From: Mucisphaera calidilacus
GTDB lineage: Bacteria > Planctomycetota > Phycisphaerae > Phycisphaerales > Phycisphaeraceae
Assembly (NCBI RefSeq): GCF_007748075.1
Contig: NZ_CP036280.1
Coordinates: 1,110,001-1,142,000 of the forward strand
Direction: 5' to 3'
Length of the DNA stretch: 32,000 nt
Part shown: piece by piece, positions 17,877 to 30,228 of the stretch
Layout: the number at the start of each line of letters is the position of its first letter
Position numbering within the stretch: position 1 is the stretch's first letter
Translations under genes and position numbers: made by a program
Notes under the pieces: model-generated
Told to the model about the DNA's origin: nothing
Seen by the model: the letters and a program-made list of their open reading frames with translations, nothing else
Database searches by the model: none

Positions 17877-18436
17877 CAAGCGTGTCCTTTCAGTGGTGAG
17901 TTTGAATTCCAGGAATTCCGGGGGGAGCTGTGGTAGTTGCTGATGACGCCCGGCACGATCAGCCACAGGCCAAGGCCGATGACCGCCACGATCCAGACCC
18001 ACGTCGGCAAAGCGGGCAGGCCGATCGCCAGGGCCATGACCGCTGCGCCGATGGCGATGGTGTAGGTGCCCGCAGTGGTTGGGATCAGGGGCAGGTACGA
18101 CCTGGCGGCCAGGACCCCGACACCGCCAATCATCAGCGCCGGGCCGGTGACCCAGGCAATCCAGGTCTGATCCGCCGCGATCATCGCCGGCGTCTGCTTC
18201 TGGCCCGATCCGGTGGAGATGATCATCGGCCCGTGCTCGAGCGTGGCGGGGTGCACCGCCTTGTCCGGCTGGGTGACGGTGACCTTTGCGCCGCTGCCAT
18301 CGGTGCAGGTGATGCGGCCGTGGTGCACGCACGAGGTGATCGCCATGACCGCGACAAACAGCGTCGCCGTCAGGGTCATGCCCATCGAAAAGGCGTTGAG
18401 CTCGTGCAGCAATGCGTCGTCGCAGGGATGCTTCAT
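17876..18436 (-). CDS. Polytopic membrane protein, possibly a lipoprotein
   Basis: About 186 aa from ATG 18436. Lipobox-like LFVAVMAITSC. Three C-terminal hydrophobic helices: WIAWVTGPALMIGGVGVLAA, TYTIAIGAAVMALAIGLPAL and WVWIVAVIGLGLWLIVPGVI. One TTCCGGGGGG copy lies near the 3' end. Confidence 0.6.
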   Translation of the reverse strand: MKHPCDDALLHELNAFSMGMTLTATLFVAVMAITSCVHHGRITCTDGSGAKVTVTQPDKAVHPATLEHGPMIISTGSGQKQTPAMIAADQTWIAWVTGPALMIGGVGVLAARSYLPLIPTTAGTYTIAIGAAVMALAIGLPALPTWVWIVAVIGLGLWLIVPGVISNYHSSPRNSWNSNSPLKGHA

Positions 18437-18438
18437 GA

Positions 18439-18654
18439 TCAAGACCTTTCGCTGGTGGACTCAAGCACTTGCCGCAGCATCGCCAGGCCTTGCCGATCCG
18501 GCCCGCTGCTGCGCGGCGCTTGCTGTTGCTGATACGGGTCAAAGTCCGACGGCCTGTAAGGGCGGCCTTTCCTGGGATCACGGTGGGTATTGGCGATCAG
18601 GCAGCAGAGCACCGAGGTGTGGGCCCAGCGCTCGCGGCCGTGGCCCTCGGCCAT
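18439..18654 (-). CDS. Tail assembly chaperone T-segment, probably made only as a -1 frameshift extension of the 18675-19220 product
   Basis: It lies in the -1 frame relative to the upstream chaperone ORF ((19238-18654) mod 3 = 2). That frame stays open upstream through the G-rich 3' end of the chaperone gene (...GFRGRGRGFWGLTLRQLLWMAEGHG...). There is no RBS before its own ATG. Confidence 0.55.
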   Translation of the reverse strand: MAEGHGRERWAHTSVLCCLIANTHRDPRKGRPYRPSDFDPYQQQQAPRSSGPDRQGLAMLRQVLESTSERS

Positions 18655-18674
18655 CCACAGCAGTTGCCGAAGCG

Positions 18675-19220
18675 TCAGCCCCCAGAATCCCCGCCCCCGC
18701 CCCCGGAATCCTCCGAAGTCACAGATGCCAAGGCTTCCCGCGATCCGAAAGACATCGGCCCACCCATAGGTGCCGCCATCGCCTCGTCCACCAGCTTCCG
18801 GGGGTCGATCCCGTCGATCCTGGTCTCGACCGCGTTGACCGCCGCGTCGATCATGGCCATCTGCTTGGCGACCGCCTTGGCCCTGTCGTTGCGGCCGCGC
18901 GACCGGAAAAAATCGATGAGTTCCTCGTAGAACGCTTTCTGCGCTGCCAGCAACGTCTGGCCGTCGAACCCGGCACGTACCTGATCCTCGGTCACGTTGT
19001 GCTTGTCGAACTGCCCCTCGAGCATGCAGCAGAGCACCTGACCAAGCAGCATCTCGTCGGTCCCAAACAGCGTCAGGAGGGGCTGGCCGGTTGGATCGCC
19101 ACTGCGAGGTGCCTCGGGCTGAAGCAGGTCGATGTCCAGCTTCTGCTTAACCGCCATGGCCGTGCCGAGGTTGAGTGTGAGCGTCCAGCTGCGGCCAGTT
19201 GCGTCGGTAAAGGTCTTCAT
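18675..19220 (-). CDS. Tail assembly chaperone (gpG-like)
   Basis: ATG 19220 (MKTFTDATGRSWTLTLNLG...) follows GGAGGTGG and overlaps the major tail stop by 1 nt (TGATG). It lies between the major tail protein and the tape measure. It ends ...SEDSGGGGGDSGG, encoded by a motif array. Confidence 0.7.
   Translation of the reverse strand: MKTFTDATGRSWTLTLNLGTAMAVKQKLDIDLLQPEAPRSGDPTGQPLLTLFGTDEMLLGQVLCCMLEGQFDKHNVTEDQVRAGFDGQTLLAAQKAFYEELIDFFRSRGRNDRAKAVAKQMAMIDAAVNAVETRIDGIDPRKLVDEAMAAPMGGPMSFGSREALASVTSEDSGGGGGDSGG
18678..18711 (-). repeat. TTCCGGGGG-family array (a)
   Basis: Minus strand GGATTCCGGGGGCGGGGGCGGGGATTCTGGGGGC, located at the 3' end of the chaperone gene. Confidence 0.85.
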
Positions 19221-19657
19221 CAGGCCACCTCCACCCACTCTGTGAACACCGCGAGCTTGGCCGTCACGCTGACGGTCACGCCTTCTTCGAGCGGCTCGCT
19301 GCGGCTAAAGTTCGTGATCGAGAAGTCGCCGTGCGGGCCTTCGGTGCCGGAGGTGGACTTCTCGCCGGTGAGCACGGCCAGGCTGATCGTGGAGGCGGTG
19401 AGGAACGCGGTCTTGATCGCGTCGAAGCCCGCGTCACCCGGCTGCCAGAGCATCTCGAACTCGGCGGTGCACTCGCGCAGCGTCGGTGCGGTCGCCCGCC
19501 ACCCCGCGTTGGCGCGGGTGGTGACGTCCGCCTCACCCGCTTCGAGGTTGAGCGTCACGTCCTTGACGTTGCTCATCTCGGTCAGGTTGGTCAGGTCGTC
19601 ACCGGCGGTGCCCTGGTAGATCTTGGCGTTCATGCCAAGGACGAATTGATCGGCCAC
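19220..19657 (-). CDS. Major tail protein (TP901-1/HK97-like tube protein)
   Basis: GTG 19657 follows AAGGAGA and lies downstream of the preceding stop at 19675, so it is preferred over the track start 19702. ...NVKDVTLNLEAGEADVTTRANAGWRATAPTLRECTAEFEMLW... resembles siphovirus major tail proteins. Confidence 0.7.
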   Translation of the reverse strand: MADQFVLGMNAKIYQGTAGDDLTNLTEMSNVKDVTLNLEAGEADVTTRANAGWRATAPTLRECTAEFEMLWQPGDAGFDAIKTAFLTASTISLAVLTGEKSTSGTEGPHGDFSITNFSRSEPLEEGVTVSVTAKLAVFTEWVEVA

Positions 19658-19674
19658 GGTGGTATCTCCTTGTG

Positions 19675-20109
19675 TCAGGGACGGATGACGCTGTCGCGCC
19701 ACAGCGAGGGCAGCTTGGGCAGTTCCTTGTCAAAGGCCGGCCCCATGAACGGCCGTGCCCGGATGGTCACGCGTCGGCGTTGGCCACTGCGGGTGAGCGT
19801 GGTCGAATCGCCGTACTCGAGGAGGCCGGGCGCTTGGCCTCGCGCACTGCCGCTTAGACGGGCCGGTCCAATGACCACCGAGTTCTTCTTAGGGTCGTAA
19901 CCAACGAAGATGAACTTCTTGAGCAGGCCGGTGTGGCTGCTCGGCGGCGAGCCGGGTTCGCTGATCCTCTTGCGCTTGCGGATGCTGCTTCGCGCCGTGC
20001 GGCGCACGAACGCACCAAAGCGGCTCAGCACAGCACGTGTCGCGTGGTCGACTCGGCGGCGTACGGCCCGGGTGTCGAAGAAGAGGTCTTTGATACGAAG
20101 ATCAAGCAC
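19675..20109 (-). CDS. HK97 gp10-like head-tail / tail-terminator family protein
   Basis: 144 aa. ...TGLLKKFI...IRARPFMGPAFDKE resembles the HK97 gp10 family signature (TG.L..SI ... ARPF..PA). Confidence 0.6.
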   Translation of the reverse strand: MLDLRIKDLFFDTRAVRRRVDHATRAVLSRFGAFVRRTARSSIRKRKRISEPGSPPSSHTGLLKKFIFVGYDPKKNSVVIGPARLSGSARGQAPGLLEYGDSTTLTRSGQRRRVTIRARPFMGPAFDKELPKLPSLWRDSVIRP

Positions 20110-20470
20110 CGCCGTTCTCCTGCTTGCGGGTGTAGATCAGCCAGCCCGCGACCAGGACGTCCGCGTCGAGGCTCAGCGTCAGAGCGTCGCCGACTTCGCA
20201 CACAAGCCAGGGGATGCTGGCGTCGGGGCTGAGCCCCAGCACCACGCAGCTGTGCGCCGCCATGGGCAGCAACCCGCACAGGGGCGTCTGACGATCGAGC
20301 GGCCCGCTGTAGAACGCGGCGTTGACCGCGCCCGCCGCCATCAGGCAGCCTCCGAGCACGCAGATGCGCTGACCCGGCTGCGCCGCGATCAGCTCGTGGC
20401 CTTCTGCGCGATGCCCCGCTGCGGTCACGGTGACGCGGGCGATCTGTGATGTGTCGAGGGCAGTTGTCAT
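20102..20470 (-). CDS. Hypothetical head-tail module protein
   Basis: 122 aa. Contiguous and overlapping with its neighbours in the same operon. No motif recognised. Confidence 0.5.
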   Translation of the reverse strand: MTTALDTSQIARVTVTAAGHRAEGHELIAAQPGQRICVLGGCLMAAGAVNAAFYSGPLDRQTPLCGLLPMAAHSCVVLGLSPDASIPWLVCEVGDALTLSLDADVLVAGWLIYTRKQENGGA

Positions 20471-20473
20471 GGC

Positions 20474-20923
20474 TTACCTGAATCTCATCGTGCGGTAGGT
20501 CAGACTCAGCACGCTGGTAAAGACGCGCTGGTGCAGCAGGTGATCAGCGGCGTAGACCGGGTCGTTGACGGTGCTGACCCACATCGCGTGATCCGCTTGA
20601 TCAAGTCGCCGCTGACGCAGGTAGGCGGCGATCTCGTCGGTCAGAGTGCCCAGGTCTTCGACCTGCTGATCCGCGTCCTGCGCTACGAGCTTCTGCTGCA
20701 CGCCCACGTCCACACTCACGTCGTGCTGGCTCAGTGTTCGTGTGGCCGCCGCCGACTCGATCGCCTTGGGCACGACGGTGACTCGAAGGTCGACCAGGTC
20801 GGCAAGCTCGTAGACCGGCAGGAGCTTGCGCACCGCGGTAAACGGCTTGCTAAAGACCCCGGGCCGAGCCGGCAGGTTCAGCTCGTGGGTCACGGCGTCG
20901 GCGATATCAATGACCAAGCTCAT
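20474..20923 (-). CDS. Hypothetical head-tail connector-position protein
   Basis: 149 aa. Tightly packed in the operon. No motif recognised. Confidence 0.55.
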   Translation of the reverse strand: MSLVIDIADAVTHELNLPARPGVFSKPFTAVRKLLPVYELADLVDLRVTVVPKAIESAAATRTLSQHDVSVDVGVQQKLVAQDADQQVEDLGTLTDEIAAYLRQRRLDQADHAMWVSTVNDPVYAADHLLHQRVFTSVLSLTYRTMRFR

Positions 20924-20928
20924 GGTGG

Positions 20929-21168
20929 TTACCCTCCCGCAACCGAAGCGAGCAGGGCGATCAGCCCCGAGGTGGTGGTCGCGATCACCGCCGCCACGAT
21001 CAGCCAGGTGAGCCTGGCCTGACGCGCAGCGTTCTGTTCAAGGCGGTCCAGTCGCAGCTGAATACCCGGCCGGCCGTTGCCGCGCACCGCCTGGTCAAGC
21101 TGATCGAGCTTGCGGTGCACCGACTCGAAGTGCTCGCGGCACTGCTCAAACTGTTGGCACTCACTCAT
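20929..21168 (-). CDS. Small coiled-coil protein with a C-terminal transmembrane anchor
   Basis: 79 aa: MSECQQFEQCREHFESVHRKLDQLDQAVRGNGRPGIQLRLDRLEQ... followed by LTWLIVAAVIATTTSGLIALLASVAGG. The ATGA start overlaps the upstream stop. Confidence 0.6.
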   Translation of the reverse strand: MSECQQFEQCREHFESVHRKLDQLDQAVRGNGRPGIQLRLDRLEQNAARQARLTWLIVAAVIATTTSGLIALLASVAGG

Positions 21169-21524
21169 GGTTCACTCTGGGGCGTGGTGTCCTTGGTGTG
21201 GATGCGGAAGGTGGTGCGGTAAGGGTCAGACCAGCGCCACGGGCCTTCGCCCGCCAGGTAGATGACCTCGTAGACCCGTCCGTCAGCGACGATCTGGTCG
21301 CCCTGCTTGGGCCCAAAACCCAGCTCACTGGCGAGGATCAAAAAGTCCGTGACGTGCGACCGCACCGTCAGGCCCGATTCGTCCGCCATCTCGACATCCG
21401 TCTTGCCGTAGGTCGCGTTAACGGTGACGCTGTCGGGTGGGCGTCGGTACGCGACGGGGCTGGAGCAGCAGGTTGTGCGCTGCTGCTCGAGCCACTGCGC
21501 GCCTTGGCGAAGAAGATCAGCCAT
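21165..21524 (-). CDS. Head-tail adaptor / head-closure-like protein
   Basis: 119 aa. ...DFLILASELGFGPKQGDQIVADGRVYEVI...WRWSDPYRTTFRIHTK resembles phage head-tail joining proteins. A 1-nt TGATG overlap links it to the DUF2190 gene. Confidence 0.5.
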   Translation of the reverse strand: MADLLRQGAQWLEQQRTTCCSSPVAYRRPPDSVTVNATYGKTDVEMADESGLTVRSHVTDFLILASELGFGPKQGDQIVADGRVYEVIYLAGEGPWRWSDPYRTTFRIHTKDTTPQSEP

Positions 21525-21892
21525 CAGGCGTTTTGCAGCAGGACCGCGCGGACGGCTGGGTCGCCGTTAGCAGCGTCAGCGACGGCCTTGCCAAGCAGCG
21601 TGTTGCTCGGCTCGGTGGTGGTCGCTGCCCCGCTAAGCGCTACGCCGTCAAGCGGGTTGCCGTCGGCGTCCCAGTAGACCTTCTCGCCGGCCGCGATGAT
21701 GCCCGAGGCCTTGGCGATGTCGTAGACGCCGGTGAGCTCGAGCGTACCCAGCTGACCCGCCGCGATATCGTGCTTGGCGATGCCGACAAGGCCGTCGCCG
21801 AGGACCACGATGTCGCCGGCGCTCACGTCACTTCCTGGCGCAGGGGTGTAGTCGATGCCTTTGCCTTCGTGGATAAAGCGTGCTTGTGTCAT
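21524..21892 (-). CDS. DUF2190-family protein (capsid decoration / cement-like)
   Basis: 122 aa. ...SAGDIVVLGDGLVGIAKHDIAAGQLGTLELTGVYDIAKASGIIAAGEKVYWDADGN... is the characteristic DUF2190 pattern. Confidence 0.7.
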   Translation of the reverse strand: MTQARFIHEGKGIDYTPAPGSDVSAGDIVVLGDGLVGIAKHDIAAGQLGTLELTGVYDIAKASGIIAAGEKVYWDADGNPLDGVALSGAATTTEPSNTLLGKAVADAANGDPAVRAVLLQNA

Positions 21893-21930
21893 AAGTGATG
21901 CTTCCTTACTTGTTCTGGTGAACGATCCGT

Positions 21931-21964
21931 AAAAAGGACCCGCCTCCTAAGAGGTAAGAAGGCG
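21931..21964 (-). terminator. Intrinsic terminator after the capsid gene
   Basis: Minus strand CGCCTTCT-TACCTCTT-AGGAGGCG forms an 8-bp stem including one G-U pair, followed by GGTCCTTTTT. It lies 20 nt downstream of the capsid stop at 21985. Confidence 0.55.
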
Positions 21965-21984
21965 AGCCCCGGGAGCCGATACGC

Positions 21985-24159
21985 TTACGCCTCGCCCTTC
22001 ATCTTCAGAGCGCCGCGGTAGTCCTGTTCCTTCACACCAAAATCGATATAGCCGCGGAACATCACGCCCAGCCGGTTAAAGTCTGCGTCGGTCTTCTCGA
22101 CGGTCGGGCGATCGACGCCGTTGAGGAACGCGACCTCGATCGCCGGCAGGCGGTTGGGATCGGCCAGCAGGTACCAAGCCTTATCTGATGCCCCCGAGAA
22201 GCTGCTGTTGGACAGGTAGACACTCGAGACCACGCCGAACTTACCCACGTGCGGGTTGGCCGCGGGCTTGGCCTTGTTGGCGCTGGTGGTCTCGTTGAGC
22301 TGGACACTCTTCATGAGCATCTCAGCGGGCACCTTCAGCGCCGTGGGCACCAGCAGCGTGGCGGGCCGGATCCCCAGCGGCTTGCCACTGGGCTTTACCT
22401 GAGTGCCAAAGGCCACCTCGGCGGCGGTCAGCCCGTCGACACTCAGTGCTGTGTCAGCACCGGCCTTGTAGTTGTTGTGGCCCGCGTGGAAGAAGGCCTG
22501 GCCGTCGGGCTGCACCGGGTTGGCCAGCCACAGGCCCCAGACCGCGTCAGCGATCGCCTCGGCTGCGCCCATACCGATCTGACGCGGGATGTCGGTAAAC
22601 GCGCCCATGTCATCGTTGATGATCATCTGCCGCGTCAAGCCGAACATGATGCCGTGGGTATCGGCTTTCTGGCTGAAGGTCTGTTCACCCAGTTGCCCGT
22701 GCTTGAGTTCGCCATCGGGACCGATCTGCTCGAACTGGAAGCTGCCGGTCATCCTGTAGCGTGTGTGCTGCTTAAAGTCGTTGACCGAGGCAACCTTGGC
22801 GATGCTCCTCCACGCGTCCTCGACGTAGTTGTAGCCCTCGAGCAGCATCTTGTTGGCGACGTTAGAGAGGATGCCCGGGAGCGTCGTTGTGCTAAACGCG
22901 GCCTCAAGCCAGCCCGACGCATCACGCCTAAAGCGCGGCAGGTGCTGACCCGAGGCCAGTTCACAAAACTCCTGGATACCGACGCCACGCAGCTTGTCTG
23001 CCGCTTCGAGGATCGACTCGTCGTAGCTCGCCTCGATCCGGCTACTGGAAAGACCCGACGCCATCAGCGCCACAGCTTCAAAGACCTGCTCCCCCCGGAC
23101 CCCCGCCCCCGGCCCCCGGACACCCTGCCCCCGGACACCCCGCCCCCGGAATCCTCGATCGCCGTCATGGTCTGACGACGAGACGACGGCCGGCACCTGC
23201 GGCCGGGACGCACGCAGCACGTGCAGCTCGGTGCGGCTCTCGTCCCAGCCATCCTCAATCGCCTTGGCCTCAATTTCGGGGTAGCTGCCCTTGCAGACGC
23301 TGCGGATGGCGGCAATCCGCTTGCTCTCTGCGGCAGCTTCGGCGCGCATCGCCTGAATCGAGTCGCTGACCTTGCCGTGAGCTGACGGGACCTGCTTGCC
23401 CTCATCCGACCGCGCTTCGACCCCCGGGTACTTCTCCTCGTGCTGCTCCTGGGAGTCCGGGGAGTCCGGGGAGTCCGGGGTCTGCTTGGTGGTTTCGACG
23501 GTTTTACGGGGGGCCGGGGTTTCCGGGGTTTCCGGGGGGTGCGGGGTGGTGGCGTTGTTGTCGCTCATCGCGTGAGTCTCCTTGTCTTGGGCTGCGATCC
23601 GGGCCGACGTGGCGGCGTCCGCACCGCTGTCGACGAAGCTGATTTCTTTGAGCACCGACCGCCGCACCACGTGCACGGGGCCGGTAAACGATTGATCGTT
23701 GACCTTGACCTGCTGTCCTGCGGGCACCATCTCGGCCTCGATGACTGCCGCGCCGATCGACGCCTGCCAGGGAAAGCCGTTCGTGCCGCTTCGGGCCACA
23801 TCGCGTGCCCAACTGGTGTCGCGGCTGATCAGGCCCTCGGCCAGGACCCGGCCGTTGTCGACCAGGACGCGCTGGGTGTGGCCCACACCCTGACGGCGCT
23901 CGTGGTCCAGGCGGATCGGCAGGTTCTGCGACGGGATCTCCAACCCCTCAAGATCCACCACAACAGGGTGCGGGAACCCGGTGATCTTCATCAGACCGCC
24001 GGTGTAGGCGACCATGCGGAACTGCGGCAGCCCCGGAAGCTTGCCGTCGGTGGCGGGAGCAGCCGCTTCAACGCTCAGAGAGCATCGGAAGCTCAGGTAA
24101 TCAGGCTGCTTGTCGTTGATTCCGGGGGTTTTCATTGCCGGGGGTGCTTCCGGGGGCAT
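21985..24159 (-). CDS. Prohead protease - scaffold-like linker - major capsid protein fusion (HK97-type)
   Basis: 724 aa. GAGGAA RBS before ATG 24159. The N-terminus has an S78/HK97-protease-like motif (IRLDHERRQGVGHT...GLISRDTSWARDVARSG...WQASIGA...KEISFVDSGAD). The helical middle (IQAMRAEAAAESKRIAAIR...EIEAKAIEDGW) resembles a scaffold. The C-terminal ~370 aa resemble an HK97-fold capsid protein (...FSQKADTHGIMFGLTRQMIINDD...LLVPTALKVPAEMLM...). Confidence 0.75.
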   Translation of the reverse strand: MPPEAPPAMKTPGINDKQPDYLSFRCSLSVEAAAPATDGKLPGLPQFRMVAYTGGLMKITGFPHPVVVDLEGLEIPSQNLPIRLDHERRQGVGHTQRVLVDNGRVLAEGLISRDTSWARDVARSGTNGFPWQASIGAAVIEAEMVPAGQQVKVNDQSFTGPVHVVRRSVLKEISFVDSGADAATSARIAAQDKETHAMSDNNATTPHPPETPETPAPRKTVETTKQTPDSPDSPDSQEQHEEKYPGVEARSDEGKQVPSAHGKVSDSIQAMRAEAAAESKRIAAIRSVCKGSYPEIEAKAIEDGWDESRTELHVLRASRPQVPAVVSSSDHDGDRGFRGRGVRGQGVRGPGAGVRGEQVFEAVALMASGLSSSRIEASYDESILEAADKLRGVGIQEFCELASGQHLPRFRRDASGWLEAAFSTTTLPGILSNVANKMLLEGYNYVEDAWRSIAKVASVNDFKQHTRYRMTGSFQFEQIGPDGELKHGQLGEQTFSQKADTHGIMFGLTRQMIINDDMGAFTDIPRQIGMGAAEAIADAVWGLWLANPVQPDGQAFFHAGHNNYKAGADTALSVDGLTAAEVAFGTQVKPSGKPLGIRPATLLVPTALKVPAEMLMKSVQLNETTSANKAKPAANPHVGKFGVVSSVYLSNSSFSGASDKAWYLLADPNRLPAIEVAFLNGVDRPTVEKTDADFNRLGVMFRGYIDFGVKEQDYRGALKMKGEA
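23089..23156 (-). repeat. TTCCGGGGG-family array (b)
   Basis: Plus strand has three 15-bp units, GCCCCCGGACACCCT / GCCCCCGGACACCCC / GCCCCCGGAATCCTC (23112-23156), plus CCCCCCGGAC and CCCCGCCCCCGG upstream. Encodes GFRGRGVRGQGVRGPGAGVRGE. Confidence 0.9.
23451..23480 (+). repeat. TTCCGGGGG-family array (c1)
   Basis: Perfect 9-bp tandem repeat GGGAGTCCG x3 plus GGG. On the antisense strand it encodes SPDSPDSPDS. Confidence 0.9.
23508..23549 (+). repeat. TTCCGGGGG-family array (c2)
   Basis: GGGGGGCCGGGGTTTCCGGGGTTTCCGGGGGGTGCGGGGTGG. On the antisense strand it encodes HPPETPETPAPR. Confidence 0.9.
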
Positions 24160-25687
24160 CGGTGTCTTCCTCGTTGTCTCGTGGTGGCTGTTCGGGCTGG
24201 GTCTGGGCTTCGCTGAGCCCTAGCTGCTTCATGAGCTGTTTTTCCTTGGCCCGCTGACGCAGTTCGGTCTCCCAGTCCTTGCCCTGGCGGGCGTACTCGG
24301 CCGCGAGTGTGGTGGTGTTGCTCGAAAGCCGCTTCGCCTGGGCGGTGGCTTCCTTGGCCGGGTCAACGTGTTCGGTGCCGTCCCAGAACCACTGACGCGC
24401 AAGACGCCTTGCACGTGCGTCGATCCCTCGCAGGAAGGCAAAGTCGCGCAGCAAGCTGGCCTCATGCAGCCAGGCGGCGAAGATGCGGTCGAGCACCGTG
24501 TTGCTGCAATCAGCCTGCTCGACGCGGATGGATTTGAAGTAGGTCTGGTAATCGAGTCGCCCGGAGGCGTAGTTGTAGCCGGCGCTGTTGCCCGCAGCGA
24601 CGTTAAATGGCATGTTCAGACAGCGGGCGATCTCATTGAGCAGTTCATGCTTGAACTCGCTGTACGTCGTGCCGGGCTGCTCAGCCTTGATCTGCCCGAG
24701 CTTCCAGCCGTCGGGCAGCGTGGTCGCCATGCGTTTTTCGAGTTGGACCACGTCCATCGGCTCGACGGCAGACGCCTCCCCGTTGGCAGGAGCGTCGGTG
24801 TAGAGCACGGCGGCGAAGTCGGCGGCTGTCTCGGCAGCGGCCAGAACCGCCAGGGTGTAGCGACGCAATTGAGCGAACAGCGGCAGCGCCGGCGTGATCT
24901 CCGGGACACCGCGGTGCTGACCCGGACGGTCAGGTCGGAACCAGTGAATCATCGACGCTGCCGGCACGCGGTCATACACATCGACGATGGATGTGTATGC
25001 GGTCTGCCCGGGGTGCTGCCGATGCACCAGGTAGGTTCGCGGATTGCCGTGGCGGTCGAACTCGATGCCGTCAACCTCAGCAAGCGTCTCGTCGCGCGTG
25101 TCGAAGGCACGGTGCCTTCCGGAGCTGCGGTTTCCAAGGGCGGGGCTATCTCCGGGGGCGGGGGTGGGGGTGGTGATTCGGTCCGCTTCGATCAGCTGCA
25201 GGTCGATCTTCACCGGCGAATCGATCCTCGGGTTACCTGCGATAAGAGCGAACGCCTCGCCGTCGGTCGCCTTGGCCATCCGCATCGTGCGGATCTTCTC
25301 GGCCAGATGAATCTCCCTGGCCCAGTTAGCAAAGGCCGTCTCGACGATGCGGTTGATCTCCGCGTCCTCGGTCAGCAGCTGCAGACGCGGGCCGGTGCCC
25401 ACGCAGTCGTTGGCCAGTGTGAGCACGATCCCCTTGGCGTAGGCGTTGTTCGCCACCTCGTAGCGGGCGCGGTTGCGGAGCTTGCCACGCACGTCGGCCG
25501 AAGCCGCCGCGTCAGCCGACAACCCGTCGGCGTTGGCCCAGTGCCGGGCGTTGTCCACGGTGGTCTGCGCCGCGTCGTAGCGCGCACGTAGCGCCCCCGG
25601 AACCTCCCCCGGAACCTCCCCCGGAACCACCCCCGGCATCACCGGGAGGGACTGCTGGGCCTTCACCTTCTTGCGGAACGGCCACAT
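24101..25687 (-). CDS. Portal protein, lambda family
   Basis: ARYDAAQTTVDNARHWANADGLSADAAASADVRGKLRNRARYEVANNAYAKGIVLTLANDCVGTGPRLQ matches the lambda-type portal N-terminus. ATG 25687 overlaps the upstream stop by 1 nt (TGATG). The track start TTG 25690 is less likely. Confidence 0.85.
   Translation of the reverse strand: MWPFRKKVKAQQSLPVMPGVVPGEVPGEVPGALRARYDAAQTTVDNARHWANADGLSADAAASADVRGKLRNRARYEVANNAYAKGIVLTLANDCVGTGPRLQLLTEDAEINRIVETAFANWAREIHLAEKIRTMRMAKATDGEAFALIAGNPRIDSPVKIDLQLIEADRITTPTPAPGDSPALGNRSSGRHRAFDTRDETLAEVDGIEFDRHGNPRTYLVHRQHPGQTAYTSIVDVYDRVPAASMIHWFRPDRPGQHRGVPEITPALPLFAQLRRYTLAVLAAAETAADFAAVLYTDAPANGEASAVEPMDVVQLEKRMATTLPDGWKLGQIKAEQPGTTYSEFKHELLNEIARCLNMPFNVAAGNSAGYNYASGRLDYQTYFKSIRVEQADCSNTVLDRIFAAWLHEASLLRDFAFLRGIDARARRLARQWFWDGTEHVDPAKEATAQAKRLSSNTTTLAAEYARQGKDWETELRQRAKEKQLMKQLGLSEAQTQPEQPPRDNEEDTDAPGSTPGNENPRNQRQAA
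24119..24156 (+). repeat. TTCCGGGGG-family array (d)
   Basis: ATTCCGGGGGTTTTCATTGCCGGGGGTGCTTCCGGGGG. Lies within the 59-nt overlap between the portal 3' end and the capsid-fusion 5' end. Confidence 0.85.
25142..25173 (+). repeat. TTCCGGGGG-family array (e)
   Basis: GGGGCTATCTCCGGGGGCGGGGGTGGGGGTGG. In the portal it encodes TTPTPAPGDSP on the antisense strand. Confidence 0.7.
25593..25646 (-). repeat. TTCCGGGGG-family array (f)
   Basis: Plus strand has 12-bp units CCCCCGGAACCT x2, then CCCCCGGAACCA and CCCCCGGCATCA. Encodes the portal N-terminus MPGVVPGEVPGEVPGA. Confidence 0.9.
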
Positions 25688-25893
25688 CAAACAGTCCCTC
25701 CCGGATCGACCTTGGCCAGCTTGATACCGAGGCCTTTCGACCGACTCGCCTTCTTGGACTCGAGGTACTTATCCGCGGCAATCTGGTCGGCAAGACCGTG
25801 CTGGTCCACACTGCCGCTGTCACCCGAGGCTCGCTTGGGCCCGGCGGCGTTCTCGCGGATGGTGGTGTCCAGGTTGTCCGTGTCCTTCGCCAA
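25687..25893 (-). CDS. Small phage protein in the gpW position, between terminase and portal
   Basis: 68 aa. TTG start preceded by GGAGA. ...SGDSGSVDQHGLADQIAADKYLESKKASRSKGLGIKLAKVDPGG. Function is inferred from position only. Confidence 0.5.
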   Translation of the reverse strand: MAKDTDNLDTTIRENAAGPKRASGDSGSVDQHGLADQIAADKYLESKKASRSKGLGIKLAKVDPGGTV

Positions 25894-26127: not shown

Positions 26128-28467
26128 TTACCTGTGCCATGACTGCTCGCTCCTTTGCATCTGTGACAACTTCAGTCGTTTGCCCGGCGTGGCCGTGACC
26201 GCCTGCGTGCCGGTGAGATTCGCTCCTTGGACGCTGGCCGCGACGGCGCAGCCGACCAGGCAGTCCAGCCAGTGGTTGTCCGGCCTGCCTGCCCGCAGCT
26301 TCCACTCATCCACCACGCGGCCCCGCGCTTCGGTCTGCACGCGGTACTCGGCGGTGAGGTGCTCGGCGAAAAGCTGGTGTTCGGCGGGCTTGCGGCCAAA
26401 GAGCGACAGACAACCCGGATCACCCATCGCCACCGATAGCCGGGCGTGGATAAAGCTCTTCCAGTAGTTGGTGTCGATCAGCACGTGCCGCACCTGCCTG
26501 CGTCCCTGCACGTTGGGGATGCGCCAGTGGTGCCCGACCCGCTCGCCGCGCTTGCGCTTGTATTCGCTGAACGGAATGCTCGAGGCACCGACGTAGCGCC
26601 CGTGGCTGGGCATGACCAGGCTGGCGTGGGCGCTCTGGCGGCAGAACTGATAGACCACGTCGGTGGACTGGCCCCAGTTGGCGTCGATCAGGCAGCGTTC
26701 GATCCGCAGTTCGGCCCCGTCGTCGCGTCGCCAGCTTCGAGACAGGTAATCCTCGGTGAGCTTCTCCAGCCCGGCGTAGATCGAGCCTTCGAGCCCTGTG
26801 CCCGGCGCATTGCGCCCCAGCGTCTTCTGGGCTTCTCTGAGCGTGAAGTACGAACGCTGCTGATCGGGGTAGGTGCCATAGTCGAGGGCGTAGCCGGTGA
26901 AGTCGTCCTCCCACGCCACCACAGCGTGAAAGAGCAGCTTGCCCTGCACGTCGATGAACATCGTCAGGTGGCTGGCCCCAATCGGCACGATTGCCCGCGG
27001 ATGGCCGTTGATCTTGGCAGCGATCGCCTCGGCGGAGAGCTGATCGACGTCGCCTTCGTCCTCGGGCAGCGGCTCGTTCTGGTACTCGGCCCAGAACGCC
27101 CGTTCATCCTGCAGCCGCAGGTTCATGGCGTGCTGGATCGCCGACAGTTCATCCTCGTTGTGGCGCTGCGGCCAGGCGATCACCGCGCCCGCATCCATCT
27201 TGTCGCGATGCTCGCGGTAGAACTCGGTCGCCTCGTGGCCGTCGCCGTCGTTACGGAAGCTATCGGATCGAATCTGGGCGTAGGTCTCCCAGAGCTTCTC
27301 GTTGTCAGGAAAGGCGTAGACCAGCTTGGTGCGCTGCCCCTGCCATGCCGGGTGCTTGTCGCGGTCAAGAATCTGATCCGCCATGTCCCCGGGGCGGATC
27401 ACCGTGCAGGGCATGATGCCGGAGATCTTCTGGCCCGGGCCGGCCAGGTTCAGGATCGCGCCGTTGAGCGTCTCCATCCGGGCACGCACCTGCTGATCAC
27501 TGCGGGCCGATTCGTCGGTCTGCGGGTCATCGAGGACCACCAGCGACGGGCGCAGCGCCCGGCCGTCGGCGTGCTTGTACTTCATGCCGCGAATCCGGCT
27601 CTCGATCCCCGCGACCCGTACAACCGCGCCCGAGCAGTCGCTGCCAGGGGTCGTTGGCAGCACAATCTCGTCGGCCGTCCAGACGATGCGGGTGTGCTTG
27701 CCGTTGCAGAGTTGGCCCTTGGCGCGGTTGTGGATGCGTTCGAGCGCATGGATCGGGTAGACCGCCTCGGGATAGTCTTCGAGCAGGTGCTCGTTGGTCT
27801 CGAACTCGACCTTGATGCTCTCGAGCATGTTGCGGGCGTGCCCGGCGTCCGAGCCGATCAGGCAGACGAACTCCTGCGCTCCGGTGAGCATCGCCCAGAT
27901 GCAGGCCGTCTCGGCCAGCGTGGTCTTGCCGCTGCCACGGGGCATGGCCATGGCGAACAGCCCGCCGCGAAGCACGGCGTGTTCGATCTTCTCGATGACC
28001 TTGAGGTGATCGTTCGACCACGGCAGGCAGAAGGTCTCAGGGAAGTAGGTCTCGCAGAAGAACCGAAAGTCGTCGCGTGCCTTAGCCTTGCGATCCGGGT
28101 CGACGATCTTGGGGATATCGCCGATATCACGCCCGCTGGCCGACAACTCGGCGTTGCGGGCACGAGCCGCCTCTTTAAGCGCCTCATAACCCCCGGAAGC
28201 AGCGGGCTGCTTGTCCGGTTCACCTTCGGATGGGTGGTGACGCAGCCACACCAGCCACGCGGCGTAGCGCAGCAGGTCGACGTGCTTCTCGTCGCCCACA
28301 CGAAACCCCGCCCGGTTGCGGTGGCGGCGCAGCTGCTGCTCGCTGATCACCTCACCCAGCGGCGTGGAGTTGAGCATCCGCGTCAGCGTCGACGGGCGGA
28401 GCTTGCGCGGGTCAATCCTTCCGGGGGTGTTTCCGGGGGCGGGGGCGGGGTTACTTCCGGGGGCCAT
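26128..28467 (-). CDS. Terminase large subunit with an N-terminal TerS-like wHTH extension
   Basis: 779 aa. GGGAGG RBS. Walker A MPRGSGKTTLAE, Walker B LVVLDDPQ. Nuclease-half motifs FIDVQGKLLFHAVVAWEDD and CLIDANWG. N-terminal residues 20-75 (LRPSTLTRMLNS...ISEQQLRRHRNRAGF...VDLLRYAAWLV) are similar to the upstream 77-aa protein. Confidence 0.85.
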   Translation of the reverse strand: MAPGSNPAPAPGNTPGRIDPRKLRPSTLTRMLNSTPLGEVISEQQLRRHRNRAGFRVGDEKHVDLLRYAAWLVWLRHHPSEGEPDKQPAASGGYEALKEAARARNAELSASGRDIGDIPKIVDPDRKAKARDDFRFFCETYFPETFCLPWSNDHLKVIEKIEHAVLRGGLFAMAMPRGSGKTTLAETACIWAMLTGAQEFVCLIGSDAGHARNMLESIKVEFETNEHLLEDYPEAVYPIHALERIHNRAKGQLCNGKHTRIVWTADEIVLPTTPGSDCSGAVVRVAGIESRIRGMKYKHADGRALRPSLVVLDDPQTDESARSDQQVRARMETLNGAILNLAGPGQKISGIMPCTVIRPGDMADQILDRDKHPAWQGQRTKLVYAFPDNEKLWETYAQIRSDSFRNDGDGHEATEFYREHRDKMDAGAVIAWPQRHNEDELSAIQHAMNLRLQDERAFWAEYQNEPLPEDEGDVDQLSAEAIAAKINGHPRAIVPIGASHLTMFIDVQGKLLFHAVVAWEDDFTGYALDYGTYPDQQRSYFTLREAQKTLGRNAPGTGLEGSIYAGLEKLTEDYLSRSWRRDDGAELRIERCLIDANWGQSTDVVYQFCRQSAHASLVMPSHGRYVGASSIPFSEYKRKRGERVGHHWRIPNVQGRRQVRHVLIDTNYWKSFIHARLSVAMGDPGCLSLFGRKPAEHQLFAEHLTAEYRVQTEARGRVVDEWKLRAGRPDNHWLDCLVGCAVAASVQGANLTGTQAVTATPGKRLKLSQMQRSEQSWHR
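28419..28463 (+). repeat. TTCCGGGGG-family array (g)
   Basis: TTCCGGGGGTGTTTCCGGGGGCGGGGGCGGGGTTACTTCCGGGGG. Spans the TerL start and the TerS-like stop. On the antisense strand it encodes APGSNPAPAPGNTPG. Confidence 0.9.
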
Positions 28468-28684
28468 GAGCCGCCTCCCTCGCCAGCCAGGCGGCGTAAT
28501 GCACCAGGTTCACGGTGCCGGGGTTCCGGGGGTCGGGGTTCCGGGGGTCGGGGTTGGTGGGTGCGCCCGCTTCGATGTCGACGCGGACCATCGCCTCGGT
28601 GATGCGGCGATGGCCCGCTGCTGCGAGGATCTTCGCCGCCTGAGCCGGCGTCAGTGCCGTGATTCTGGGGTTGGGGTCGGACAT
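28451..28684 (-). CDS. Small terminase-like / Nu1-type wHTH DNA-binding protein
   Basis: 77 aa. ...LTPAQAAKILAAAGHRRITEAMVRVDIEAGAP[TNPDPRNPDPRNPG]TVNLVHYAAWLA. Sits immediately upstream of TerL and overlaps it by 17 nt. The bracketed segment is encoded by a motif array. Confidence 0.6.
   Translation of the reverse strand: MSDPNPRITALTPAQAAKILAAAGHRRITEAMVRVDIEAGAPTNPDPRNPDPRNPGTVNLVHYAAWLAREAAHGPRK
28518..28560 (+). repeat. TTCCGGGGG-family array (h)
   Basis: 15-bp units GGGGTTCCGGGGGTC x2 followed by GGGGTTGG. On the antisense strand it encodes NPDPRNPDPRNPG inside the TerS-like wHTH. Confidence 0.9.
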
Positions 28685-28818
28685 ATCTCTAGCCCTTCTG
28701 CGAGCTTGTGGGAATCTGTAAGTAATTGCGAGTCATGGGCTTAATGGTCTTGATGATGCCGCGATTCCATGGCTTGATGTGTCTGTAACGACAGCACCAG
28801 GTAGCCAAGGAAATCGCC

Positions 28819-29049
28819 ATGCATAGCGCACGCCCCAACGCCAGCAGCAGCCTTCAACGCGACTGGCACGACCTCAAGCCCGGCGACGTGATCTGGTTCA
28901 ACAGCGCCTGGCGCGAGGTCTTCGACGCCTACCCCAGCGGCCACGACACCGTGACCATCAAGCTGATCGTTCGGGCCGCGAAATGCCCCACCCGGATCGA
29001 AACCCACCGCGTCTGCGTCAACAACACCACGGCCACCTGCCAGGCCTGA
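28819..29049 (+). CDS. Hypothetical small protein, first gene of the divergent accessory operon
   Basis: 76 aa. AAGGAAA RBS. No motif recognised. Confidence 0.55.
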   Translation: MHSARPNASSSLQRDWHDLKPGDVIWFNSAWREVFDAYPSGHDTVTIKLIVRAAKCPTRIETHRVCVNNTTATCQA

Positions 29050-29070
29050 ACCGGAAAGGAACACACCACC

Positions 29071-29307
29071 ATGGCCAAGCAGACCGCCCACGAGCTCTAC
29101 GACCAACGCCGCCAGGACATCGCCCGCGTGATGGACTGGATCGAACTCGAACTCGACAAGCACAAGACCAACGCCAAGAGCGATCCGAAGAACTGGGGCT
29201 ACGCCGGTGACCTCGGCCACGTTCGCGAGAAGCTCATCGAGACGCTGGCTTTCCTCTCTAACAGCGATCCGCAAGAGATTGAAGCGATGCTCAGTGAATG
29301 CCGCTGA
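29071..29307 (+). CDS. Hypothetical small protein
   Basis: 78 aa. AAAGGAA RBS. Helical (MAKQTAHELYDQRRQDIARVMDWIELELDKHK...). Confidence 0.55.
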   Translation: MAKQTAHELYDQRRQDIARVMDWIELELDKHKTNAKSDPKNWGYAGDLGHVREKLIETLAFLSNSDPQEIEAMLSECR

Positions 29308-29352
29308 TTCCCTTGAATCGTCATCAACCACGCTTGAGCAAGGAGACATCCC

Positions 29353-29595
29353 ATGCCACAGCCACGCGCAACCACGGATCAGGCGCTTCACCGCATCGCC
29401 AGCGAGACGCTCGGCCTCGAAACCCTCGAGACCCGCAAGAGCGACAGCCTCGACTTCCACGAGGTCAGCGTTTGGGGCGTCAAGGCCGCCCTTGAGCAGG
29501 CGTACGAAGCGGGCCGCAAGGCGGCTCCACCCCAGCCTCCAACGCGAACCATCTGCCCGGCGTGTGGCCGGGAGATCGAGACCCGCCCCCTCTAA
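29353..29595 (+). CDS. Hypothetical small protein with a DUF6900-like motif
   Basis: 80 aa. AAGGAGA RBS. ...LGLETLETRKSDSLDFHEVSVWGVKAALEQAYEAG... resembles a small family seen on plasmids and phages; this rests on memory only. C-terminal CPACG. Confidence 0.55.
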   Translation: MPQPRATTDQALHRIASETLGLETLETRKSDSLDFHEVSVWGVKAALEQAYEAGRKAAPPQPPTRTICPACGREIETRPL

Positions 29596-29623
29596 AGCCC
29601 GCTCGTTGCGGGCTTGTTTGTTG
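29596..29623 (+). terminator. Intrinsic terminator
   Basis: AGCCCGC-tcgtt-GCGGGCT is a perfect 7-bp stem, followed by TGTTTGTTG. It starts directly after the stop codon at 29593-29595. Confidence 0.6.
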
Positions 29624-29646
29624 ATAGAACCCCAAGGAGTGACGCC

Positions 29647-30228
29647 ATGAAGAAGATCGACGTGCAGATCGGCGCGACCTACCTCGTCAAGGTCGCCGGC
29701 AACCTCGTGCCGGTGAAGATCGAGCGCGAGCACGCATCCGGGTACGGCTGGGAAGGCGTGAGCCAGAAGACCGGCAAGACGATCCGGATCAAGAGCCCGC
29801 AGCGCCTGCGTCAGCGTCTGGGCGACGTTCCCGCCACGGCCGACGGGCCTGCGAGGACGACCGCCAAGGCCAAGACCAGGACCCAACGCGACACGGGCCA
29901 ACGTGCCGCGACTGGGGGCGCTTCCGGGGGCGATTGCGGGGGTACTTCCGGGGGTGCCGGGGGTGATTCCGGGGGAGAGAAGCAGATGAGTCTGCTCGAC
30001 GCGGCGGCGCACCTGCTGAGCCTGGGCACCGGCGACGACCCGAGGGCGATGCGCTGCCAGGAGTTGGTCGACCTTGCCATCGAGAGCCGGCTCTGGTCGC
30101 CCGGCAAAGGCAAGACGCCCGCGAACACGCTCTACGCCGCCATCTCGCGCGAGATCAAGGTCAAGGGCGACGCCAGCCGCTTCGTCAAGGCCGAACGCGG
30201 CAAGTTCGCCCTGGCCAGCACTGCCTGA
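29647..30228 (+). CDS. Two-domain DNA-binding protein: small beta-rich N-domain, basic linker, C-terminal HARE-HTH-like winged helix
   Basis: ATG 29647 (MKKIDVQIGATYLVKV...) follows AAGGAG; the track start 29614 lies inside the terminator. The C-terminus MSLLDAAAHLLSLG...MRCQELVDLAIESRLWSPGKGKTPANTLYAAISREIKVKGDASRFVKAERGKFAL fits the HARE-HTH pattern (RpoE-delta N-domain type). The linker GGASGGDCGGTSGGAGGDSGG is encoded by a motif array. Confidence 0.65.
   Translation: MKKIDVQIGATYLVKVAGNLVPVKIEREHASGYGWEGVSQKTGKTIRIKSPQRLRQRLGDVPATADGPARTTAKAKTRTQRDTGQRAATGGASGGDCGGTSGGAGGDSGGEKQMSLLDAAAHLLSLGTGDDPRAMRCQELVDLAIESRLWSPGKGKTPANTLYAAISREIKVKGDASRFVKAERGKFALASTA
29914..29975 (+). repeat. TTCCGGGGG-family array (i)
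   Basis: GGGGGCGCTTCCGGGGGCGATTGCGGGGGTACTTCCGGGGGTGCCGGGGGTGATTCCGGGGG: six G5 tracts at an 11-12-bp period. Encodes the interdomain linker of the HARE-HTH-like protein. Confidence 0.9.

Follow-up and report, generated by a model that had tools for sequence, protein, structure and literature searches.

The DNA word TTCCGGGGG, arrayed in the head and packaging genes of a Mucisphaera calidilacus prophage, looks like a genome-wide repeat of certain Phycisphaerae

Here we describe a 9-nt DNA word, TTCCGGGGG, in a prophage of Mucisphaera calidilacus. The window, by which we mean the whole 32,000-nt stretch analysed (NZ_CP036280.1, positions 1,110,001-1,142,000), contains the prophage together with 9.7 kb of host DNA. 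The genes concerned are those for a 187-aa protein (18675-19238, minus strand), a protease-capsid fusion (21985-24159, minus strand), the portal, TerL, a 77-aa ORF upstream of TerL (28451-28684, minus strand) and a HARE-HTH protein (29614-30228, plus strand), with a DNA methylase encoded nearby; the TerS, wHTH and chaperone products gave no Pfam or PHROGs match and carry labels taken from gene position only. Copies and arrays of the word lie along the prophage as follows (window coordinates).

17916-17924, plus strand: single exact copy lying between the genes for the tape measure and the 187-aa protein; it is uncertain which ORF is real there.
18679-18708, minus strand: G5 array (CCCCGC x2.8 on the plus strand) with one exact copy at its end, coding the C-terminal SEDSGGGGGDSGG of the 187-aa protein, a tail missing from relatives.
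18796-18804, plus strand: single copy within the 187-aa gene, antisense DPRK; relatives have DIDK or DPGK there.
23092-23151, minus strand: period-15 array of one exact and three 8-mer copies, coding GFRGRGVRGQGVRGPGAGVRGE, a ~23-aa insertion that immediately precedes the capsid domain in the protease-capsid fusion.
23447-23551, plus strand: two period-9 arrays of 4-G variants (TCCGGGGAG x3.8, CCGGGGTTT x2.7) with an exact copy at 23530, coding two linkers, TPDSPDSPDS and PPETPETP, that separate the protease part from the scaffold part.
24031-24037, minus strand: 4-G variant, LPG near the capsid-fusion N-terminus; other motif-rich phages have SGG or NPG there.
24120-24156, plus strand: two exact copies, 28 nt apart, where the portal 3' end overlaps the capsid-fusion 5' end; the portal frame gives PRN and APG, the capsid-fusion frame TPG and MPPE.
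25151-25173, plus strand: 8-mer copy and GGGGGT x3.3, a window-specific portal surface-loop insertion, TPAPGDSP...
25594-25636, minus strand: period-12 array of three exact copies and one variant, coding PGVVPGEVPGEVPGA near the portal N-terminus; three copies in the window, one in phage L094.
28190-28198, minus strand: single copy in TerL at about aa 92 (AASGGYE), a net +9 nt against 82-90% identical TerL; phage L282 has LRG at this site, in another frame.
28419-28463, plus strand: three exact copies and CGGGGG runs at the junction of the 77-aa ORF and TerL, a 45-nt segment between ATG GCC and ATT GAC of TerL (MA-PGSNPAPAPGNTPGR-IDPRK), absent from all close relatives.
28514-28555, plus strand: within the 77-aa ORF, an array of period 15 that holds two exact copies and reads PDPRNPDPRNPG.
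29914-29975, plus strand: three exact copies with unlike spacers in the HARE-HTH linker, reading ASGGDCGGTSGGAGGDSGG; the linker of relatives is shorter and motif-free.

All 19 exact copies listed in the original prediction (13 on the plus strand, 6 on the minus strand) were recovered at identical coordinates, as was the lone 8-mer core, TCCGGGGG, that it had placed near position 155 (155-162). TTCCGGGGG is the top-ranked 9-mer by frequency in the window, where 0.36 copies are expected and 100 dinucleotide shuffles gave a maximum of 3; the 8-mer was observed 24 times against 2.1 expected. Several arrays mix the 9-mer with CGGGGG runs and 4-G variants. The claimed confinement to about 17.9-30.0 kb also held, with zero exact copies in the window outside 17916-29975: the 12.6 kb of the head/packaging part hold all 11 clusters and the other 15.4 kb none (p ~1.5e-4 under uniform placement), and the window density is 1.5 copies per kb. 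The description of the motif as seeded across the prophage did not survive, since the tail module (12-17.7 kb) has 0 copies; the 9.7 kb of host DNA inside the window likewise has none.

The word is a DNA-level feature and not a peptide-level one. All six strand and phase readings proposed for its core are found: the sense phases read SGG, xRG and (V/L)PG, the antisense ones PR(N/K), P(E/D) and PG. FRG and PRN come from the frames that are used least. By comparison, AGCAGGTCGA, a codon-driven 10-mer of the same window that served as an internal control, is read in one phase per strand. Synonymous shuffling of 13 genes, with every protein kept, gave 0.80 +/- 0.82 copies (maximum 4 in 500) against 21 observed, a figure in which copies in overlapping genes are counted twice. 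The six frames and the shuffle together bear out the earlier claim that the conserved unit is nucleic acid. The word also employs GGA, a rare codon for glycine (22 of 287 Gly codons). Of the same-strand spacings, 80% are multiples of 3; array periods mostly follow the multiples of 3 that had been claimed, the copies at 24120 and 24148 in the portal/capsid overlap (28 nt apart) being an exception, and periods of 13 and 17 occur in arrays beyond, or at the margin of, confident ORFs. Inverted TTCCGGGGG pairs of the terminator type are rare.

Alignment with homologues identified every window array as a lineage-specific insertion in a variable linker or terminus, and the proposed placement at insertion-tolerant sites was confirmed by the way in which the arrays align as insertions in regions that are gap-rich among relatives. 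New copies are precise short insertions, some consisting of the bare 9-mer and others adding a few bases to it, frequently with runs of CGGGGG. Examples include an exact 9-nt gain before CAG TGG in the portal, portal loop inserts of 24 nt and 42 nt in two phages, TerL gains of 45 nt and 9 nt in the window, and, in phage L282, a 39-nt array together with a patch changing CCA GAG AAG to CCC CCG GAA; occasionally a short patch is replaced with length unchanged. Local multiplication takes the form of tandem duplication of "word plus spacer" units, and the G5-tract arrays so produced conform to the canonical G-quadruplex pattern. The motif is present in many of the longer indels that distinguish phages 88-92% identical to each other.

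Related phages were sampled as 80 loci picked via the portal gene, blind to the motif. Among these, TTCCGGGGG density is bimodal and independent of GC, with zero copies in 61 of the 80 and 0.5-1.3 copies per kb in the motif-rich phages of the family. Content can be patchy along a single phage, the window and L046 each being motif-rich in one part and empty in another. Motif-free relatives have 0 copies in 8-15 kb at identities of 83-90% for TerL, 61-70% for TerS, 52-70% for HARE and 80-90% for the methylase; L244, for example, has 0 copies in 11.5 kb (TerL 90%, TerS 68%, HARE 62%, methylase 90% identical), and L257, L250 and L248 similarly keep the homologues and are motif-free. Whether a phage has homologues of TerS, HARE-HTH and the methylase bears no relation to the motif, and pPSMK1, a homologous plasmid from P. 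mikurensis, carries 1 copy in 81 kb. As relatives with ~90% identical TerL carry none, the arrays are dispensable for packaging or assembly. From these sequence comparisons, the head/packaging module of the M. calidilacus prophage appears to have acquired its copies recently.

The word is not confined to phages. Loci with triple arrays were Planctomycetota, chiefly Phycisphaerae, in 86 of 120 cases, several genomes supplying many contigs each, and in Phycisphaerae MAGs the array-bearing housekeeping genes include those for IMPDH, GyrB, ClpP and tRNA synthetases. A type IV secretion conjugative element (L128) has 17 copies in 8 kb, or ~2 per kb. With the arrays behind the search hits set aside, density comes to 0.28 copies per kb; loci of other taxa have 0.06, and ~0.02 is expected. 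DNA around GH5 orthologues in relatives, chosen blind to the motif, has only 0.08, which suggests that the host background may be low; host-locus densities are otherwise biased upward by the use of 8-kb tiles picked for containing an array. Enrichment persists at 50% GC (Dive100 loci), and presence is patchy even inside the Phycisphaeraceae. In host loci most copies are singletons and the first decile of ORFs is enriched in motif; strand polarity is absent (140 clusters on plus, 130 on minus; heterogeneity p = 0.26). It had been argued that equal frequency in host housekeeping genes would make the word a compositional artefact. That frequency is approached by the proxy of related-genome loci (0.3-1 against 1.5 copies per kb), but the artefact conclusion does not follow, because the word stays DNA-level in those genomes too.

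Based on these comparisons, we think it reasonably probable that TTCCGGGGG is a lineage-restricted, hyper-abundant DNA word, spread by insertions and patches, expanded in tandem and confined by selection to tolerant in-frame sites. It looks like an undescribed genome-wide repeat of certain Phycisphaerae and not a phage device. Some chromosomes of Phycisphaerae (Planctomycetota) would carry it at 10-50 times the chance rate, as would phages and conjugative elements akin to those of that group. The pattern suggests that selection purges copies that disrupt reading frame or fold, so that survivors in genes would have periods of 9, 12 or 15 nt and lie at termini, interdomain linkers and gene junctions, where they would be translated as SGG, PG(S/N), PPE, (L/V)PG, xRG or PRN according to strand and phase. 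Our preferred candidate for the driver is a sequence-specific bias in how motif-rich lineages take up, recombine or repair DNA, which would amount to a molecular drive like that proposed for uptake sequences and HIP1. Whatever writes the word may not act in M. calidilacus now, because the 9.7 kb of host DNA and the tail module are motif-free.

Clearly less probable is that the word is a selected tag of mobile DNA, which in motif-rich Phycisphaerae would either signal uptake or entry or mark the DNA as self against host nuclease or defence; carriers would establish better, leading to accumulation, and tandem copies would raise the chance of recognition. The densest carriers are indeed mobile elements (window 1.5, rich phages 0.5-1.3 and L128 ~2 copies per kb, against 0.08-0.4 in host samples, the window phage and the conjugative element being denser than any of these), but this comparison is confounded by locus choice. 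Motif gain is rapid relative to protein divergence, the two orientations are equally frequent, as they are for uptake sequences, a short patch was swapped to make the word, and the exact 9-mer is retained within array 29914-29975 though the spacers differ. Against this, the tail module of the same prophage is motif-free, a Chi-like mark would need the strand polarity that is absent, and neither a competence gene nor a nuclease gene was tied to the motif. Known uptake systems also show the reverse, Treangen in 2008 having reportedly found their mobile DNA to be poorer in signal than the core genome. The denser mobile elements fit a mobile-DNA advantage at least as well as passive acquisition.

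It is improbable that the arrays act by folding into G-quadruplexes (or i-motifs) where genes start and meet, thereby tuning translation, transcription or recombination of phage genes. As a matter of sequence pattern only, the window has 10 canonical G4 motifs against 1.8 expected, 9 of which are the arrays; several arrays lie inside the first 35 codons of TerL, portal and capsid fusion, and host ORFs show the first-decile enrichment. The singletons that prevail in host loci are nevertheless incapable of forming G4, whether the G-rich strand is sense or antisense varies from gene to gene, a G4 role leaves the conserved TTCC part unaccounted for, and close relatives manage without arrays. We give still less weight to the proposal that the word provides boundary microhomology promoting module shuffling between phages: the arrays do sit at gene and domain junctions, and patchy content in the window and L046 suggests mosaicism, but many copies lie inside domain loops and host enzymes, and nine bases are a very short homology.

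Cis-acting phage sites, whether iteron-like arrays for the small HTH protein, the TerL N-domain or HARE-HTH, packaging signals or a phage-methylase target, were among the roles put forward in the original prediction and are now very unlikely. They would suit the clustering of copies in the packaging/head module, densest at the 77-aa ORF/TerL junction, and the DNA methylase and HARE-HTH protein encoded nearby; they are largely refuted by the 61 of 80 loci, close phages with TerL, TerS, HARE and methylase homologues among them, that are motif-free, by the status of the arrays as lineage-specific insertions that are not conserved, and by the same word in housekeeping genes of other genomes and in the conjugative element. 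Hardly credible at all is a compositional artefact, in which Pro/Gly/Ser-rich linkers of a 64% GC genome draw on the same codons by chance: the encoded peptides are low-complexity and linker-like, but the synonymous-codon shuffle refutes this reading, and against it also stand the rare GGA codon, the use of all six frames, the arrays outside confident ORFs with periods that are not multiples of 3, the equal enrichment at 50% GC and the many equal-GC relatives, the majority, that are motif-free.

Taken as a lineage-restricted repeat, TTCCGGGGG shares features with several known systems. Like Chi and KOPS it is an oligomer over-represented along the chromosome, but those motifs are polar and it is not. 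HIP1 (GCGATCGC) of cyanobacteria is over-represented by a factor of 15-300 and may number more than one copy per gene, with a function that the two sources treat as unresolved (PMC5861425, PMC4390886). TTCCGGGGG is likewise hyper-abundant and lineage-specific; HIP1 is palindromic, is associated with orphan methyltransferases and is not known to form tandem in-frame arrays, whereas TTCCGGGGG is asymmetric and patchy even within one family. Rickettsia palindromic elements were reportedly described by Ogata et al. in 2000 as inserted in-frame in protein-coding genes, essential ones included, at sites tolerated by the fold. The likeness lies in in-frame repeat DNA at tolerant sites of coding genes, although those elements are palindromes of 100-150 bp and the present unit is 9 nt, non-palindromic and tandem-expanding. 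Coding simple-sequence repeats and minisatellites also form short tandem arrays of variable copy number with in-gene periods in multiples of 3; unlike them, one fixed 9-mer core recurs over hundreds of independent loci with differing spacers, and many copies are singletons that slippage could not create. In contrast to the uptake sequences of Haemophilus (USS) and Neisseria (DUS), TTCCGGGGG arises by precise insertion, forms tandem arrays, rarely occurs as terminator-type inverted pairs, is at least as abundant in mobile elements as in chromosomes and has not been linked to a competence system or receptor. It nonetheless resembles them as a non-palindromic word of 9-12 nt at roughly one per kb, in both orientations, within genes in all frames, restricted to a single lineage and biased toward the frames and places least harmful to proteins.

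The 9-nt word TTCCGGGGG occurs 19 times in the window (13 copies on the plus strand and six on the minus strand), each copy lying exactly where the original prediction had placed it, compared with 0.36 copies expected from dinucleotide shuffles, and it is the commonest 9-mer of the window. Its 8-mer core TCCGGGGG is found 24 times against 2.1 expected, the copy predicted at position 155 being among them. Exact copies of the 9-mer are confined to positions 17916-29975, with none across 9.7 kb of host genes and none across 5.7 kb of prophage tail genes, and Tandem Repeats Finder reports the arrays as tandem repeats with periods of 9, 12 and 15, interspersed with CGGGGG runs. The genes concerned are arranged as follows.

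Features of the window
332-10179, host genes of planctomycete type: DUF1559 with N-terminal methylation motif, PEP-CTERM, dockerin, GH30, GH5
10546-11571, minus strand, IS transposase with rve integrase core and HTH_21 domain
15742-17733, minus strand, tape measure (PHROGs)
18675-19238, minus strand, 187-aa protein
19220-19702, minus strand, tail tube
21985-24159, minus strand, "major head and protease" fusion (capsid fusion)
24101-25690, minus strand, lambda-family portal
26128-28467, minus strand, gpA-type large terminase (TerL)
28451-28684, minus strand, 77-aa ORF
29614-30228, plus strand, HARE-HTH protein
30400-31551, plus strand, Fic-domain protein, adjoining the HARE-HTH gene
31557-31961, minus strand, DNA methylase fragment (N6_N4_Mtase), at the window end

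M. calidilacus strain Pan265 (CP036280) belongs to the family Phycisphaeraceae and has a GC content of 63.9% (PMC8882080). The IS transposase separates the glycoside-hydrolase genes of the host from the distal tail genes and is close to the presumed end of the prophage. The Fic protein, which has a close homologue in one of 80 related phage loci (L303, 85%), looks like variable cargo. Antisense to the HARE-HTH and Fic genes runs a 938-aa Arg/Gly/Ala-rich ORF (28741-31557, minus strand), probably a spurious high-GC ORF; TerL and the portal gene are likewise overlapped by similar long antisense ORFs.

The enrichment of the word stays when coding content is controlled for. A codon-shuffled control, already envisaged in the original prediction, exchanged synonymous codons among 13 window genes while preserving all proteins and codon usage, and yielded 0.80 +/- 0.82 copies of TTCCGGGGG (maximum 4, 500 shuffles) against 21 observed. 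Within the word these genes use GGA, a rare glycine codon, and every phase of the core is used in both orientations, giving SGG, xRG and (V/L)PG in sense and PR(N/K), P(E/D) and PG in antisense. The original claim that the conserved unit is nucleic acid is thus borne out, and TTCCGGGGG is a DNA-level element. A second over-represented word, AGCAGGTCGA, serves as an internal control, with eight copies (600, 744, 2613, 12168, 16091, 19123, 20658 and 28271) against 0.09 expected in the window. In contrast to TTCCGGGGG, it occupies a single phase per strand, read as (I/V)DLL or QQV(D/E) in preferred codons, in host and phage genes, and looks like a codon or peptide effect.

Alignment of the window proteins with their relatives (82-90% identical in the case of TerL) places the arrays at termini, linkers and gap-rich loops, in agreement with the prediction that they lie where insertions are tolerated, and reveals them as insertions relative to those relatives, with variable copy number. 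TerL begins MAIDPR in the relatives and MA-PGSNPAPAPGNTPGR-IDPRK in the window, a gain of 45 nt with three copies between ATG GCC and ATT GAC, and there is a further net gain of 9 nt at ASGG, around residue 92. The N-terminal array of the portal has three GTTCCGGGGGAG units in the window and one in the related phage locus L094, while the portal loop and C-terminal copies fall in gap-rich alignment columns. Copies in the capsid fusion occupy an N-terminal extension, the protease-scaffold linker and an insertion of ~23 aa directly before the capsid domain, and the same insertion pattern is seen in the HARE-HTH linker and at the C-terminus of the 187-aa protein.

In other motif-rich phages these tolerant sites hold the word in different frames: LRG replaces SGG in TerL, and SGG or NPG replaces LPG in the capsid fusion. 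Further copies occupy positions particular to those phages. The portal genes of L094, L040 and L101 show a precise gain of 9 nt, (A/C/T)TCCGGGGG, before CAG/CTG TGG, which those of L106, L037 and L095 lack, and one portal loop has received inserts of 24 and 42 nt. The TerL gene of the related phage locus L282 contains a 39-nt G5 array as well as a length-neutral replacement, CCA GAG AAG to CCC CCG GAA, which creates the word between conserved flanks and resembles a short conversion patch more than the outcome of stepwise mutation. Many of the longer indels between phages that are 88-92% identical contain the motif. These alignments show the arrays to be recent insertions in tolerant places. 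The word is gained through short insertions and patches and multiplied by duplication, and proteins accept it only when it is in frame and falls in a flexible region.

To sample the phage family without regard to the motif, we collected 80 loci by a portal-based search (portals 61-77% identical). No copy is present in 61 of them, including ten high-GC loci of 15-21 kb, while about 15 carry 0.4-1.3 copies per kb, and across all 80 loci motif density shows no relation to GC content. The original prediction had offered iterons, packaging signals or a phage methylase target as roles for the arrays, and these do not survive the comparison. Homologues of the prophage genes labelled TerS, HARE-HTH and methylase occur in motif-free and motif-rich phages alike; L244, with TerL 90%, TerS 68%, HARE 62% and methylase 90% identical, has no copy in 11.5 kb. 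Conservation among phages that share the cognate proteins, as for phage iterons or pac or cos sites, was not found in L244, L257, L250 and L248, whose TerL proteins are 83-90% identical and which encode TerS and HARE-HTH homologues yet have no copies. Because motif-free relatives carry homologues of the phage's own DNA-binding, packaging and methylation proteins, we rejected these genes as the driver. Judged by its absence from so many relatives, the word is dispensable for this phage family; the window arrays are not regulatory or packaging elements and no such annotation should be given to them.

Within motif-rich phages, the word extends across all modules, tail included, in L307, L286 and L314, while the window and L046 each combine a rich part with an empty one, which suggests mosaic ancestry. 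The methylase fragment is 72-93% identical at the amino acid level across most of the phage family (higher-GC members), with or without the motif, and the structural genes are less conserved (TerL down to 41%, capsid 36-78%). A low-GC branch (~43%; L304, L305, L306, L309-L311, L315 and L317-L319), with portals 64-68% identical to that of the window and no motif copies, presumably has its hosts in another group. A contig of 193 kb that is labelled viral, IMGVR_UViG_3300005512_000002, has doublets at five well-separated places (L030, L057, L071, L089 and L108), L057 alone holding 11 copies in 6.9 kb; it could be either a piece of a motif-rich host or a very large element.

A scan for three consecutive copies, with each species represented by a single genome, returned at least 120 loci. 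Among the matches listed, 86 of 120 belong to Planctomycetota, mostly Phycisphaerae, and several genomes have many array contigs, such as MAG SJ709 with at least 11 and one 2.96-Mb contig with three distant sites. Also among the matches listed, loci outside Planctomycetota are mostly a single isolated array, with one each in actinomycetes. We set these aside as probable ordinary coding repeats; in the one locus checked, from Prosthecobacter, all 16 copies form one 600-nt, single-strand array of period 21. The array-bearing planctomycete ORFs are ordinary housekeeping genes, for example those for IMP dehydrogenase, class I tRNA synthetases, GyrB, NuoD, ClpP, methionine synthase, porphobilinogen deaminase and peptide deformylase, and the loci richest in additional copies encode ribosomal protein S2, EF-Ts, glutamine synthetase, FtsH, SmpB and ScpB. 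Leaving out the triggering array, density among the matches listed is 0.28 per kb in Planctomycetota and 0.06 in other taxa, compared with ~0.02 expected, and enrichment is also seen in one genome at 50% GC.

Mobile elements other than phages carry the word unevenly. A conjugative element in a Phycisphaeraceae MAG chromosome (L128), encoding VirB4, VirB11, VirD4 and a DUF3363 relaxase, holds 17 copies within 8 kb (~2 per kb), whereas the homologous Phycisphaera mikurensis plasmid pPSMK1 (NC_017081.1; L327 and L328) has one in 81 kb. Their type IV secretion systems are of one type and each comes with a DUF3363 relaxase, while their motif content differs sharply. Sampling blind to the motif, we found 7 copies over 87.6 kb of sequence surrounding GH5 orthologues in the host's relatives; single loci carry between 0 and ~0.2 per kb, except for a doublet ending one 3-kb contig, so that motif richness is patchy even within Phycisphaeraceae. 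The word is a feature of a bacterial lineage, the phages having it in common with chromosomes and a conjugative element of some Phycisphaerae. Its density is 1.5 per kb in the window prophage against 0 in the 9.7-kb host flank, and 0.08-0.4 per kb in host samples, the host loci being a biased sample. Absence from both the host flank and the tail module suggests either that the head and packaging module acquired its copies elsewhere or that M. calidilacus is not a motif-rich species.

Several properties bear on how the word arises. Same-strand spacings are multiples of 3 in 80% of cases, 12 being the commonest, then 9 and then 15, while periods of 13 and 17 occur in arrays that lie beyond confident ORFs or just at their border, which indicates that multiples of 3 reflect selection and not the generating process. 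Spacers are usually identical inside an array and different between arrays, and units of host arrays are mostly identical, the pattern expected of local tandem duplication of the word plus its neighbours. Host genes and phage genes both make use of all six frames, with SGG, PG(S/N), PPE and (L/V)PG favoured and FRG and PRN rarest; about one third of copies fall outside crude ORF calls, and the first ORF decile is enriched. The window contains 10 matches to a G-quadruplex pattern (four or more G3+ tracts, loops of 1-7 nt) against 1.8 expected, nine of which, as pattern matches only, are the arrays themselves. Searches gave no Rfam match at the gathering threshold and no tRNA.

We infer that the exact 9-mer is maintained by a bias or by selection that is specific both to the lineage and to the sequence; the driver may be biased uptake, recombination or repair, or else an advantage that mobile DNA derives from the word. 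The last of these would make the word a tag for mobile DNA, a possible explanation given that mobile elements are its densest carriers. The extra copies in host loci are mostly singletons (145 clusters, 161 copies, among the matches listed), which slippage cannot generate. Two observations point beyond neutral slippage: the word stays constant while spacers vary at 29914-29975, and the L282 patch was replaced in such a way as to create it. A polar motif of the Chi or KOPS kind is excluded, given the lack of strand bias (140 clusters on the plus strand and 130 on the minus strand; 100 neighbouring pairs in the same orientation and 84 in different orientations; no local polarity, heterogeneity chi-square p = 0.26).

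A fuller version of the inferred sequence-specific bias is tentative, and we regard it as rather unlikely. Some Phycisphaerae might possess an undescribed system that writes or favours TTCCGGGGG in resident or passing DNA, including essential genes, conjugative elements and phages, either through an uptake or entry signal or through enzyme-driven oligonucleotide insertion or conversion; the word would then seed G-quadruplex-prone in-frame arrays that remodel linkers, and a phage moving between hosts would pick up or shed the signature, making it a readable host tag. If density in a phage or conjugative element does track host lineage, a host-lineage signature for uncultured viruses becomes possible. 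The arrays map where proteins accept insertions of 3-25 residues and amount to a natural experiment. There are few hyper-abundant genome words (USS, DUS, HIP1 and Chi), and every one of them has led to some DNA-handling system. A further example from Planctomycetota, a phylum that has received little study, would open a way into its DNA uptake, repair or defence.

No description of TTCCGGGGG, of tandem in-frame repeats in Phycisphaerae or of uptake sequences in Planctomycetes was found in the searchable literature. The closest parallels are uptake sequences and HIP1. Like USS and DUS, TTCCGGGGG is a short hyper-abundant word in both orientations (0.28-1 per kb in related Planctomycetota loci, against ~0.02); however, uptake sequences are richer in the core genome than in prophages and newly acquired DNA, while TTCCGGGGG reaches 1.5 per kb in the prophage and ~2 in the conjugative element L128 compared with 0.08-0.4 in the biased host loci. 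HIP1 is 15-300-fold over-represented and still debated in function (PMC5861425, PMC4390886). As a word HIP1 is a palindrome with a methyltransferase site, whereas TTCCGGGGG is not its own reverse complement and only its inner CCGG is palindromic. Chi is polar and TTCCGGGGG is not. Coding simple-sequence repeats share the tandem identical units with periods of 9, 12 and 15 and the variable copy number (three in the window portal, one in L094), but there each locus has its own unit, whereas here one 9-mer core recurs at hundreds of loci, with spacers that differ between loci and with singletons too, unlike locus-specific slippage arrays. The closest parallel to in-frame repeat insertion into genes is provided by the Rickettsia palindromic elements, although these are palindromic and ~100-150 bp long and the TTCCGGGGG units are non-palindromic and 9-22 nt. 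TTCCGGGGG thus lacks defining features of uptake sequences, HIP1, Rickettsia palindromic elements and Chi, and is best described as a word of the hyper-abundant genome kind that is unusual in its precise insertions, its in-frame tandem arrays and its presence in both essential genes and mobile elements.
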